A stretch of 63,693 bases of DNA, the filler included, from an uncultured Methanosarcinales archaeon (lineage in GTDB: Archaea > Nanobdellota > Nanobdellia > Woesearchaeales > CAZXZL01), in assembly GCA_964645415.1 (NCBI GenBank). It is 6 parts of 6 records of this genome, joined end to end, with 100 filler letters (N's around TTAATTAATTAA, not from the genome) between each part and the next. Parts side by side here need not be neighbours in the genome. Positions count along the whole stretch, not along the records: positions 1 to 12,480 come from CAZXZL010000030.1; 5 more parts are not named here. The stretch is one strand, 5' to 3'. The number at the start of each line of letters is the position of its first letter. The stretch's first letter is position 1. Positions 5,077-58,723 of the stretch are shown piece after piece. Both the position numbers and the translations under genes were made by a program. The notes under the pieces were generated by a model. It had not been told where the DNA came from. It saw only the letters and a list, made by a program, of their open reading frames with translations, and searched no databases.

Positions 5077-5195
5077 GGGGGTATGGTGTAACCTGGCAGC
5101 ACTACTGGCTCCAGACATTGGAGCTCTGATTTCCGAGATGATGGATAAAAGCTGGGAGTTACCAGTGGATCTGGGTTCAAATCCCAGTGCCCCCA
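5077..5195 (+). tRNA. tRNA-Trp(CCA) with 46-nt intron (5115-5160) at canonical position 37/38
   Basis: Acceptor GGGGGTA/TGCCCCC, anticodon stem ACTGG/CCAGT, CCA at 5111-5113, T arm CTGGG-TTCAAAT-CCCAG; bulge-helix-bulge with CTCC/GGAG central helix. Confidence 0.95.
5115..5160 (+). ncRNA. Intron-encoded box C/D-type guide RNA predicted to target tRNA-Trp C34
   Basis: Guide TTGGAGCT (5118-5125) is complementary to GGCTCCAG of the anticodon arm; CTGA box at 5126-5129; C-like box ATGATGG at 5138-5144. Confidence 0.7.
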
Positions 5196-12182: not shown

Positions 12183-12480
12183 AAAATCTTCTTAAGAGGA
12201 TTTTGCCCTACAATTTCTTTAGTTAAAAACGAATACACAATCTTTAGCTAAAATACGAATACATATTACTAAACTAAAGTTTAAAACAGTTAAATTAGAA
12301 ATTTAAAAGTGTGAAAGCTGAGCTAAAGAAATCATCTACGTTTAATCTTCTTCGAAGTTAGTCCATCAAAATCATCTAAAAACAAAAAAAGAATAAGTTT
12401 ATAAAATCAAAAATCTAATTGAATAGAATTTAATAGAAACTACTTTGCTATACGAAGTATAGTACCATCCTTGCCAGCTT
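12183..12480. repeat. Mosaic intergenic repeat cluster (copy R1) at a contig end
   Basis: Contains GATTTTGCCCTAC (12199), ACGAATAC twice, CTTTAGCTAA, a 44-bp block shared with 48214 (43/44 identical) and the GAA hairpin (12446-12464). Confidence 0.85.
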
Positions 12481-12580
12481 NNNNNNNNNNNNNNNNNNNN
12501 NNNNNNNNNNNNNNNNNNNNNNNNTTAATTAATTAANNNNNNNNNNNNNNNNNNNNNNNNNNNNNNNNNNNNNNNNNNNN
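12481..12580. other. Artificial contig-joining linker (also 24832-24931, 36640-36739, 48403-48502, 58624-58723)
   Basis: 100-nt N run with central TTAATTAATTAA (stops in all six frames), identical at five sites. Confidence 0.97.
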
Positions 12581-13864
<1,284 letters not shown>

Positions 13865-24831: not shown

Positions 24832-24946
24832 NNNNNNNNNNNNNNNNNNNNNNNNNNNNNNNNNNNNNNNNNNNNTTAATTAATTAANNNNNNNNNNNNN
24901 NNNNNNNNNNNNNNNNNNNNNNNNNNNNNNNTTGATAAAGATTGTG

Positions 24947-32677: not shown

Positions 32678-32760
32678 TCATCTTCGATGAATATAGAGTA
32701 AAGTGCTAAAGTATTTTAGTGTTATGTATTAAAGTAGGGCAAAATCATCTAAAGAAAAAT
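32678..32760. repeat. Partial copy (R3) of the dispersed repeat family
   Basis: GTAGGGCAAAATCATCTAA at 32734 (reverse complement of 48607-48625) and hairpin TCATC-TTC-GATGA at 32678-32690. Confidence 0.75.
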
Positions 32761-36639: not shown

Positions 36640-36739
36640 NNNNNNNNNNNNNNNNNNNNNNNNNNNNNNNNNNNNNNNNNNNNTTAATTAATTAANNNNN
36701 NNNNNNNNNNNNNNNNNNNNNNNNNNNNNNNNNNNNNNN

Positions 36740-37060
36740 TTCATTCAGATAATTACTTTTTTATTTAGATGATTTGATCTCAATTTTTATCAAAGTTTTT
36801 AATCTCTGATTAAATAACCCTTAAAATCTATGATTTTATATGATTGACTAGGATTGTACCATACTTCGTATGGCACGGTAATTTCTATAAATTTCTATTT
36901 CTTTTTATTTCATTCAGATAATTACTTTTTTATTTAGATGATTTTGACCTCTACATCATCGAAGATAAAAAGAGATTTCTACTCCCTTTAGCTAAACACA
37001 GATATTATTTTTCGAAGAAGATTTTACCTTACTATCTATTATAGGCAAATACGAATACAA
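36740..37060 (-). repeat. Mosaic repeat cluster (copy R4) with internal 169-bp tandem period
   Basis: 36-bp block identical at 36740 and 36909; hairpin GTACCATAC-TTC-GTATGGCAC at 36856-36876; reverse complement aligns to 48247-48340. Confidence 0.85.
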
Positions 37061-48209: not shown

Positions 48210-48402
48210 TAGTCTACGTTTTATCTTCTTCGAAGTTAGTCCATCAAAATCATCTAAGGGAAAAGTAATTATATGAATGAAATAAAAAGAAATAGAATTT
48301 AATATAAACTACTGTGCCATACGAAGTATGGTACCATCCTTACCAATTTTGATAAAGATTGAGGGCAAATCATCTAAGAAAAAAAGAAATAGGAGTTTAT
48401 AG
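48210..48402 (+). repeat. Mosaic repeat cluster (copy R5) at a contig end
   Basis: 44-bp block (48214-48257), hairpin GTGCCATAC-GAA-GTATGGTAC (48314-48334), and AAATCATCTAA twice 120 bp apart. Confidence 0.88.
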
Positions 48403-48599
48403 NNNNNNNNNNNNNNNNNNNNNNNNNNNNNNNNNNNNNNNNNNNNTTAATTAATTAANNNNNNNNNNNNNNNNNNNNNNNNNNNNNNNNNNNNNNNNNN
48501 NNTTATAATACCTTATTTTTAAAGTTAAAAGTACCTATATAAAACTTATTTACTATTATAAAGTTAAATCAAATATTTCTTTTTATTTCTATTAGTATC

Positions 48600-58199: not shown

Positions 58200-58623
58200 C
58201 TTAGAGGAATTTTATACAGGATAAAAACAAATAAAAACAAAAAATCTGCTGATTTTTTTCATGGAAGTAAAACCTAATTAAAAAAATGAAAGTAGTATAA
58301 AATTCCGACAAACACCAAAAAGATGAAAAGCGAATACACACTCTTTAGCTAAAACAGAGACTATTTTTCGTAGAAGAAAAAATTTTCTATTTTTCTTTAG
58401 AATAAAGCGTAGATAAAAATAAAACTTATTTTAACAAAGTAGAAATAAATAGAATACCATAGGAACCCCGTGCCATACGAAGTATGGTACCATCCTTATC
58501 AAATTACTAAAATCAAAGATTTATAGAACTTATTAAATTACAAATTTAAAAGTGTGATAAAATTTGAAATCAAATCATCTAAAAACAAAGAAATAAGAGT
58601 TTATAAAAACAAAACAAAAAGAA
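58200..58623 (+). repeat. Longest mosaic repeat cluster (copy R6) at a contig end
   Basis: Inverted repeats at 58206-58217 and 58295-58306, CGAATACAC, CTCTTTAGCTAA, hairpin at 58470-58490, AAATTTAAAAGTGTGA and AAATCATCTAA. Confidence 0.88.
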
Positions 58624-58723
58624 NNNNNNNNNNNNNNNNNNNNNNNNNNNNNNNNNNNNNNNNNNNNTTAATTAATTAANNNNNNNNNNNNNNNNNNNNN
58701 NNNNNNNNNNNNNNNNNNNNNNN

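Follow-up and report, generated by a model that had tools for sequence, protein, structure and literature searches.

BOX, RUP and Correia-type repeats of bacteria are lineage-specific intergenic elements made of modular hairpin-forming boxes in variable number, and promoter-like signals are possible within them. Repetitive extragenic palindromes (REPs) are imperfect palindromes of 20-40 bp that occur outside genes in high copy number, and some are mobilised by Y1 transposases. They carry an unpaired GTAG or CGTC tag, and those with the CGTC tag are without a known transposase (PMC3733652). REP-like palindromes in archaea are treated in PMC12306157. Fungal mitochondria contain double-hairpin elements (DHEs), which are described as gene-less, composed of two adjacent hairpins, dispersed in intergenic DNA and potentially mobile (PMC10085805). 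Here we describe a repeated hairpin in a stretch of archaeal DNA of 63,693 nucleotides (nt), referred to as the window, and in the genome to which the window belongs (G000; 961,391 bases in 79 contigs, about 25% G+C), a DPANN-type archaeal draft. Our results support selection on the single-strand fold of this hairpin. It appears as the first stem-loop of a gene-less two-hairpin module, and we give an even chance to the reading that this module is a small non-autonomous mobile (selfish) element, with the folded single strand as the predicted substrate of an enzyme. Such a module is apparently undescribed; no description of the two-hairpin family was found in the full-text literature searched, in which subscription journals are mostly not included.

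The 21-nt sequence GTGCCATACGAAGTATGGTAC occurs exactly at 48314-48334 (+), 58470-58490 (+) and 36856-36876 (-) of the window, and with 3 mismatches, as TTGCTATACGAAGTATAGTAC, at 12445-12465 (+). These four matches compare with an expectation of 0.00 from 100 shuffles. A sequence-only reading of the window had pointed to the same four hairpins, and all of them were located, the one placed at 12446 starting at 12445. As that reading had described, the fifth pair of the 12445 copy has changed from C-G to T-A on both arms; in addition, its first G is replaced by T, which breaks the outermost pair. The trailing motif resembling CATCCTT was also recovered, as CATCCT in three window copies and as AATCCT at 36850-36855 (-). 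In the whole genome, the exact core ATACGAAGTAT occurs 25 times, and an nhmmer profile of the core and its flanks detected 75 copies. A 69-nt covariance model (R1), built from an alignment of 68 full-length copies with 66 distinct rows (A1), detected 74. This genome-wide collection had been proposed as a check of the structure, and its covariation score and percentage of paired cells were matched by none of 500 shuffles.

Pairing in the stem of hairpin 1 is well maintained. In A1, 96.3% of 594 pair cells are standard pairs, compared with 88.4% after shuffling, and registers slid along the alignment pair in 17-66%. Mostly stem-breaking substitutions had been named as the result that would speak for chance; only 3.7% of the stem cells are unpaired, against 11.6% in the shuffled alignments. 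Two-sided changes affect three of the nine pairs (48 cells), namely pair 5 (C-G 43, U-A 21, U.G 1), pair 8 (A-U 47, U-A 18) and pair 9 (C-G 50, U-A 9). The main form is GTGCC-ATTC-TTTA-GAAT-GGTAC (13 copies), followed by GTGCC-ATAC-GAA-GTAT-GGTAC (10 copies), GTGCT-ATAC-GAA-GTAT-AGTAC (9 copies) and GTGCC-ATAT-GAA-ATAT-GGTAC (7 copies). The compensated forms radiate like a star from the triloop form that is most common, so there were few independent events (three) in this genome, and taken alone these would be modest evidence for selection.

Ten loop types were found in the 68 copies, with GAA in 32, TTTA in 13, GTTA and GTA in 5 each, GGA, AAA and AAC in 3 each, AGA in 2, and TTCA and ATA in 1 each. 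The special C(GAA)G mini-hairpin that had been proposed did not hold up at this scale, as CGAAG is present in just 25 of the 75 copies and T(GAA)A closing is seen besides C(GAA)G. The conserved feature is the fold, not the C(GAA)G mini-hairpin. The G.T pair, thought to be kept by all copies, is present in all four window copies and in 61 of the 66 distinct genome copies (pair 3, G.U when written as RNA). Hairpin 1 ends in ...CAC in the related genomes described below and in ...TAC in G000, and the G.T is most simply viewed as a G-C pair that would have drifted from C to T in an AT-rich genome, the sole direction that keeps a sense-strand wobble. The expected strand preference was confirmed, with predicted energies of -10.3 kcal/mol for the sense and -5.7 for the antisense RNA, and of -4.4 and -3.8 kcal/mol for the two DNA strands.

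Hairpin 1 does not stand alone. In the aligned copies the order is fixed, running from an A-rich stretch with TTTATAAAA through a box, hairpin 1, YATCCT and two bases to hairpin 2. The box, AAATAGAA-(T/A)TTATAGG-AACTA(A/C)C, resembles an archaeal B recognition element (BRE)/TATA pair. Hairpin 1 has the consensus GTGCY...RGTAC and is preceded by ACC, AAC or ACT in A1. Hairpin 2 has the form (T)CAAnnTT-GATA-AAnnTTG(A), often with GAGGGCAAATCATCTAA after it. Where hairpin 2 has its short form (26 copies, alignment A2), the two-hairpin structure as a whole is 92.5% paired, with two-sided changes in 7 of 17 pairs. The remaining copies have the same closing stem around 45-100 nt of further small hairpins, and its variants are kept despite these inserts (CAATTTT/AAAATTG, CAGCTTT/AAAGCTG, TCAAATT/AATTTGA and TCAATCTT/AAGATTGA). 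The insert modules are also found in other contexts, for example at 12289-12340 of the window, and the head modules GCTAAAG, CATC-TTC-GATG and GTAGGGCAAAATCATCTAA recur upstream. Each class of hairpin 1 is combined with several types of box and hairpin 2, so that this is a mosaic family rather than clonal subfamilies.

The strongest evidence for selection on the fold came from other archaea. A two-hairpin model (R2) and its rebuilt version that includes the first foreign matches (R3) both recover related units. At E<=0.01, R3 gave 20 matches in 9 of 150 same-order genomes; in G000 it matches 38 places, and it found all four window copies. By eye, 18 of the 20 matches in other genomes, in 7 of these, were judged real, and those in G024 and G073 were set aside because they look like chance matches in coding sequence. 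In a class-wide sample of 150 genomes, the sole R3 match outside G000 at E<=0.001 was in G034, which belongs to the same order. The related units, 1-6 per genome, begin with a hairpin whose sequence is unrelated, followed by ATCC[CT] or AGCTC as linker, then two bases and (T)C.A...T-GATAA-...G. Their hairpin-2 stems are perfectly paired yet different (TCAACCCT/AGGGTTG, TCGAACTT/AAGTTCG and TCAATCCT/AGGATTG). As evidence for such selection, a layout kept with unrelated stems across genomes by far outweighs the three events within G000; the structure is thus old within the order, and its stems have been wholly replaced. The earlier proposal that structure is under selection is in agreement with this result, with the pairing of hairpin 1 and with the covariation of hairpin 2.

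The other searches returned no homologues. R1 had no match in 60 same-order genomes because it is too specific to the AT-rich box of G000. A 271-nt unit searched by BLAST in 300 same-order genomes (a set that includes the unpublished G273, on which no result depends) gave weak matches in 70 genomes, none of which covers the hairpin; the five best were inspected and rejected as A-rich coding sequence or AT-rich chance matches. The exact IUPAC pattern of the hairpin had just 2 isolated matches in 185,579 species genomes, both in Chitinophagales bacteria, and 0 in metagenome contigs of the Joint Genome Institute (JGI). The single pattern matches in Pollutibacter soli and a Chitinophagales metagenome-assembled genome (the pair L089/L090) were taken as chance in unrelated bacteria.

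The copies in the window and the modules around them are as follows, with bit scores from R1 or R3 as stated:

12411-12479, plus strand: unit copy 1, with the promoter-like box, hairpin 1 and CATCCT, cut by the end of contig C30 at 12480; R1 76.2 bits, E 6.3e-11.
12445-12465, plus strand: hairpin 1 of copy 1, TTGCTATAC-GAA-GTATAGTAC, with T-A at pair 5 and the outermost pair broken.
36842-36910, minus strand: unit copy 2, with the box, hairpin 1 at 36856-36876 and AATCCT; R1 89.3 bits.
36775-36876, minus strand: two-hairpin unit of copy 2, with an extra two-hairpin insert in the loop of hairpin 2; R3 40.3 bits, E 3.7e-9.
48280-48348, plus strand: unit copy 3, with the box AAATAGAATTTAATATAAACTACT, hairpin 1 at 48314-48334 and CATCCT at 48335-48340; R1 90.5 bits.
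48343-48360, plus strand: short-form hairpin 2 of copy 3, CAATTTT-GATA-AAGATTG, which has one sense-strand U.G wobble; R3 match 48314-48367, 70.3 bits.
48241-48258, plus strand: junction motif left of copy 3, CCATCAAAATCATCTAAG.
48361-48378, plus strand: junction motif right of copy 3, GAGGGCAAATCATCTAAG.
58437-58504, plus strand: unit copy 4, with the box, hairpin 1 at 58470-58490 and CATCCT; R1 79.6 bits.
58470-58572, plus strand: two-hairpin unit of copy 4, with the closing stem TCAAATT/AATTTGA around a 55-nt insert; R3 44.3 bits.
32678-32690, minus strand (opposite to the sense strand of the family): head module, antisense TCATC-GAA-GATGA, sense CATC-TTC-GATG.
12289-12400, plus strand: other mosaic modules upstream of copy 1, namely ACTAAACTAAAGTTTAAAAC / TTAAATTAGAAATTTAA hairpins, GCTAAAG, CTTCTTCGAAG and the junction CAAAATCATCTAA.

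Each of the four window copies is about 150 nt or less from an end of its contig, and the copy at 12445 breaks off 15 nt past the hairpin. Copy 3 is flanked on both sides by an exact 12-nt repeat, AAATCATCTAAG. The hairpin at 32678, once considered a relative of the family, is a real hairpin; it belongs to a different module and is not a copy. This CATC-TTC-GATG head module stands upstream of the junction motif GGGCAAAATCATCTAA, and the motif TCTTCGAWG occurs 29 times in G000.

In G000 the units are intergenic. None of the 75 copies overlaps an open reading frame (ORF) of at least 90 amino acids (aa), and 3 of the 75 overlap a greedy 70-aa ORF call. They form 57 loci (43 single, 10 double and 4 triple), and both head-to-tail and divergent arrays occur, with periods of 83-187 nt and repeated modules rather than unique spacers. 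For the gene 5' of the unit, the strand is the same in 26 cases and opposite in 24, and there is no such gene in 25; the corresponding numbers for the gene 3' of the unit are 18, 31 and 26. On these orientation counts, the units were rejected as promoters or terminators of neighbouring genes. Of the 35 tRNA genes, 7 have a unit no farther than about 330 nt away, a mild enrichment at most. The left and right 40-nt flanks of one unit are more alike than flanks of different loci (identity 0.646 vs 0.573; 1 of 5000 permutations as high), and 12 of 26 short units have an exact flank repeat of 11-18 nt; the flank repeats are variable in length and some are longer. No terminal inverted repeats between the unit ends (AAATAGAA... 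and ...TTGAG) were seen by eye, and no formal search for them was made. Antisense-strand coding was rejected by eye, as an ATG-led frame of 21 codons in one copy closes after 2 codons in another.

Two further observations concern the arrays. A perfect palindrome, GACTTTTTTTAAAAAAAGTC, is located directly 3' of the last junction motif in two arrays (C1:9383-9402 and C54 at about 340-360), and it may be a two-way terminator or another module. At C14:11977-12020 the hairpin-1 variants GTGCTATACGAAGTATAGT and then GCCATTCGTTAGAATGGTAA are fused head to tail without the CATCCT linker; this copy is rearranged or decayed.

The copy number is high. A contig end is no more than 700 nt away from 52 of the 75 copies, and a copy is present at 40 of the 158 ends. 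Because the assembly is interrupted at these repeats, more copies than counted are probably present. In three DNA runs, word depth summed across the repeat parts reached 314-545, compared with about 21 over unique flanks in run X1. A self-BLAST of G000 found 44.6 kb of repeats, including 20.1 kb in repeats with at least 5 other copies, and the two-hairpin family is the dominant group among these high-copy repeats.

The related units in other genomes are usually found just beside the end of a tRNA or other gene. In G087, tRNA-Arg(TCG) is followed by a T-run, a unit and then a repeat of the final 17 nt of the tRNA. On contig 7 of G072, an opposite-strand unit lies before a tRNA with an intron (Rfam 31.5 bits), and this unit is followed by a reverse-complement copy of the first 13-21 nt of that tRNA. 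Contig 2 of the same genome has two tandem units, each followed by AGCCACAGGCCCA, which by eye looks like the end of a tRNA-like sequence and was called by no program. G034 has one unit 25 nt behind tRNA-Cys and another 19 nt before a tRNA 5' end, the latter with a 10-nt copy of that end. Two units precede tRNA-Ala in G054, where five further places are in arrays without an adjoining called tRNA. In G061 the 3' end of a protein gene is present in two 47-nt copies with a unit between them. Overall, 6 of the 18 related units are within about 110 nt of a called tRNA, and the units nearly always follow a gene end and point away from it, with 10-47 nt of that end copied; one exception in orientation is at 64650 on G072 contig 7, where the unit points toward the 3' end of tRNA-Glu. 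The units of G000 differ from these in that they are mostly not linked to tRNA genes, have a long AT-rich promoter-like 5' part, are amplified more than tenfold and form mosaic arrays.

G054 also carries its own arrays, which repeat about every 140 nt (loci L160, L156 and L158, on contigs C8, C24 and C124). Their hairpin GTGCTATTCC-TTT-GGAATAGCAC is very like GTGCCATTC-TTTA-GAATGGTAC of G000, and their second hairpin, ..TTCAATAC-GCA-GTATTGAA.., is like the ATAC-GAA-GTAT form. The two main forms of hairpin 1 in G000 may descend from two modules rather than from point changes.

The reading of the module as a mobile element is based on its high copy number, its intergenic placement, the lack of an orientation rule and its mosaic build, together with a more than tenfold excess in copies over any relative and the gene-end duplications at related units. 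The module would insert beside structured gene ends and duplicate the flank. In the lineage of G000 it might have left its tRNA setting and increased in number through re-insertion or tandem duplication with shuffling of modules, and the stems would be kept because only folded copies are substrates. Use of both the 3' ends of tRNAs (in sense) and their 5' ends (in antisense) would fit the recognition of a folded single strand, since a tRNA gene folds on either strand. With less than even confidence, we suggest that this is a new class of archaeal mobile DNA, a gene-less two-hairpin module of about 55 nt that would be recognised by shape together with ATCC and GATAA, moved by a host enzyme or another one and able to copy 10-47 nt of its target. 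It is similarly tentative that this class, with at least 74 copies in G000, inserts immediately outside gene ends that fold (the acceptor ends of tRNAs, whichever the strand).

Several results weigh against a mobile element. The flanking repeats in G000 are equally explained by tandem duplication. No insertion polymorphism or empty site was found in the three DNA runs, where the joints observed are most simply paralogue cross-mapping. The upper stem is disrupted in 5 of the 68 copies (class GTGCTACAGGTAGTATAGTAC), the three compensated pairs may represent only three events, each amplified afterwards, and a role as an RNA or in protein binding would likewise be in keeping with the BRE/TATA-like boxes and with ATCC and GATAA, which are unpaired and conserved. 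A mobilising enzyme was not detected either. At E<=0.1, G000 has no match to Y1_Tnp (PF01797), which is positive in 7 of 14 control genomes, or to Phage_integrase (XerA-type), which is positive in all 14 controls and in 5/5 unit-bearing relatives. DDE_Tnp_1, rve, Cas1 and RVT_1 are without a match in G000 at E<=0.01, with positive controls each time. The best TnpB-type score (PF07282) is below the cut-off (15.1 vs 26.3 bits), and the self-BLAST of G000 contains no IS-like repeated gene, its multi-copy genes being archaellin/pilin-like. The absence of a tyrosine recombinase is odd, and in a draft of 79 contigs such genes are possibly missing from the assembly, or the loss is real.

The main rival is that the units are structured small RNAs or cis-acting RNA elements, in which the hairpins, the CAUCCU linker and the GAUAA loop act, for example, as a protein-binding or processing signal; we consider this possible but unlikely. 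Transcription from the unit's own BRE/TATA-like box, or within neighbouring transcripts, would be part of this account and is just as doubtful. It agrees with the compensatory changes in two helices, with a layout kept across genomes while the stems differ and the unpaired ATCC and GATAA are conserved, and with variable hairpin inserts within a kept closing stem, which are typical of RNAs. The RNA strands also differ clearly in folding energy, whereas the DNA strands differ by just 0.6 kcal/mol, and the box AAATAGAA-TTTATAGG resembles the upstream regions of G000 tRNA genes (AGAAAC-TTTTTTATAC). However, the orientation to neighbouring genes is not fixed, and the relatives' units are sense behind tRNA 3' ends and antisense before 5' ends, so that host transcripts carry either strand. 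The TATA-like box is just 15 nt before the hairpin, and the usual archaeal spacing would put the start inside the 3' arm; oligo-T is missing after the unit on the sense strand. Rfam, whose search had been suggested for this hairpin, found only tRNAs in the window at the gathering score and only tRNAs at 16 unit loci of the relatives (3 loci at E<=0.01 and 13 at the gathering score). A parasite is a better fit than a function to 74 copies in G000 against 0-6 in relatives. Likeness to C/D-box, H/ACA, hammerhead or group II domain-5 RNAs was rejected by eye, since the defining boxes of their consensus motifs are lacking. The mobile-element and RNA readings are compatible and are not mutually exclusive.

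Other explanations are less probable than an RNA role. The units might be footprints or miniature substrates of site-specific recombination, with the gene-end repeats being attL/attR-like and a tyrosine recombinase possibly acting on folded DNA in the way of integron integrases on attC, which seems improbable; a similarly low likelihood applies to the idea that the two hairpins form the binding structure of this recombinase. Variable direct repeats of 10-47 nt flank the units in G087, G072, G034 and G061, as integration by an integrase leaves them, and each of the five unit-bearing relatives has 1-5 Phage_integrase genes. This last point says little because tyrosine recombinases (XerA) are regarded as near-universal in archaea, and the most copy-rich genome, G000, has no match. 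Furthermore, the inserted piece is gene-less and only about 60-100 nt, and one module is found at many targets in contrast to the fixed target of an att-specific integrase. It is quite unlikely that the palindrome is a double-stranded site, either the operator of a dimeric protein in a repeated promoter cassette or a nucleoid-organising site. The fixed distance of the BRE/TATA-like box upstream, a palindrome that would span the predicted start site and the strongly conserved unpaired flanks would suit such a site. Nevertheless, the half-sites switch from C/G to T/A and from A/T to T/A and stay complementary, which a dimer reading the bases would not tolerate, the loop is 3 or 4 nt long, 31 of the 49 units with a downstream neighbour point at a gene 3' end, and the relatives keep the fold and not the sequence. 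Very little likelihood is left for the earlier proposal of a single-stranded site of an HUH (Y1) transposase, as in REPs with their associated tyrosine transposases (RAYTs), the ends of IS200/IS605 insertion sequences (ISs) or their miniature derivatives. The imperfect, strand-asymmetric hairpin with a conserved adjacent motif, the high extragenic copy number, TCAA or CCAA after the linker, and insertion by folded tRNA-gene ends on either strand, which suits a single-strand mechanism, are in its favour. The search for a cognate nuclease gave no Y1_Tnp or above-threshold TnpB match in G000, with Y1_Tnp in 1 of the 5 relatives, and the GTAG/CGTC tag is lacking, with ACC, AAC or ACT in the 5' flank. 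IS200/IS605 elements are not known to duplicate their target, in contrast to the duplications of 10-47 nt in the relatives. Least probable of all, and hardly credible, is an absence of selection, in which hairpin-templated repair, gene conversion of palindromes or chance in a recent amplification produced the compensated pairs. The star of three double changes, each amplified from few independent events, and the exchange of modules as blocks would be expected under it. On the other hand, templated repair would erase the G.T mismatch, which is kept in 61 of 66 rows, unpaired stem cells are scarce relative to the shuffles, and hairpin 2 and the relatives' units follow the same rule with unrelated stems. 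The comparison across genomes largely refutes it.

The window itself consists of six contigs (C30-C35, in size order) joined by linkers, and is not a continuous piece of chromosome. The locus is present in three DNA runs, all from one soda-lake study, and no RNA run with it was listed. The genes are archaeal, including a Cbf5-type pseudouridine synthase, FtsY, an archaeal triosephosphate isomerase, archaellin/pilin-like proteins and an intron-bearing tRNA. The last is at 5077-5195 (+), with an insertion of about 50 nt past the anticodon-stem region (Rfam tRNA, 47.4 bits); it was missed by ARAGORN, is of typical archaeal form and is unlinked to the repeat. Contig C31 starts (12581-12621) with a (TTA)n microsatellite in which the unit is repeated at least 13 times. 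An archaellin/pilin-like gene of 197 aa with a class III signal peptide is present in four copies, two of them in tandem, with 80-92% DNA identity, and these are the sole sizeable repeated genes in G000. These remaining features are:

12481-12580, 24832-24931, 36640-36739, 48403-48502 and 58624-58723: six-frame-stop linkers between contigs C30-C35, each N44-TTAATTAATTAA-N44.
42171 and 61797: runs of 100 N, scaffold gaps.
G000 C36:243-1549, C4:13645-14235 and C74:1-516: copies of the archaellin/pilin-like gene.

DPANN genomes are tiny and streamlined, yet about 20 kb of G000 is in repeats with at least 5 other copies. Since repeats occupy at least 40 of the 158 contig ends, they explain much of the poor assembly of such genomes. 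If the module is mobile, its insertion mechanism would read the shape of DNA or RNA and target tRNA-gene ends, which bears on how archaeal tRNA genes gain duplicated ends, fragments and perhaps introns. If it is a new mobile class, it would supply most of the high-copy repeats of a transposase-free DPANN genome. If the module acts as RNA, it would represent an unnamed motif that is abundant and spread through the order.

Compared with known systems, the arrays differ from CRISPR arrays in having repeated modules instead of unique spacers and in the absence of Cas1. MITEs, which are small transposable elements bounded by inverted repeats, differ in that G000 has no related autonomous IS or transposase among the families searched (DDE_Tnp_1 and rve unmatched), and IS200/IS605 elements or their miniature derivatives differ because Y1_Tnp is lacking and TnpB is below the cut-off. 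A tRNA end directly repeated on either side of a unit, as in the relatives, is similar to attL/attR repeats at tRNA genes, which integrase-carrying elements leave, and to casposon- or CRISPR-type integration, in which target duplications are long. In those related units, however, the insert is 60-100 nt, without integrase or Cas1, and has many targets, and G000 has neither enzyme. Like the BOX, RUP and Correia-type repeats of bacteria, the archaeal unit is modular and intergenic with promoter-like signals; its sequence is unrelated, and it has no recognised terminal inverted repeats, short target duplication or related IS. DHEs share the gene-less hairpin pair in intergenic DNA, a likeness of form only. 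DHEs are not known to duplicate gene ends; they are GC-rich, organellar, present in few copies and unrelated in sequence to the archaeal unit. There is also a likeness to REPs and bacterial interspersed mosaic elements (BIMEs), as the archaeal unit likewise has an imperfect extragenic palindrome of 21-22 nt in 74-75 copies, is gene-less, forms mosaic arrays and is perhaps transcribed. It differs from them in having neither the GTAG/CGTC tag nor a RAYT. In the archaeal unit, a fixed pair of hairpins is joined by a conserved ATCC linker, the arrays are mostly head-to-tail rather than alternating, and related archaeal copies duplicate gene ends.

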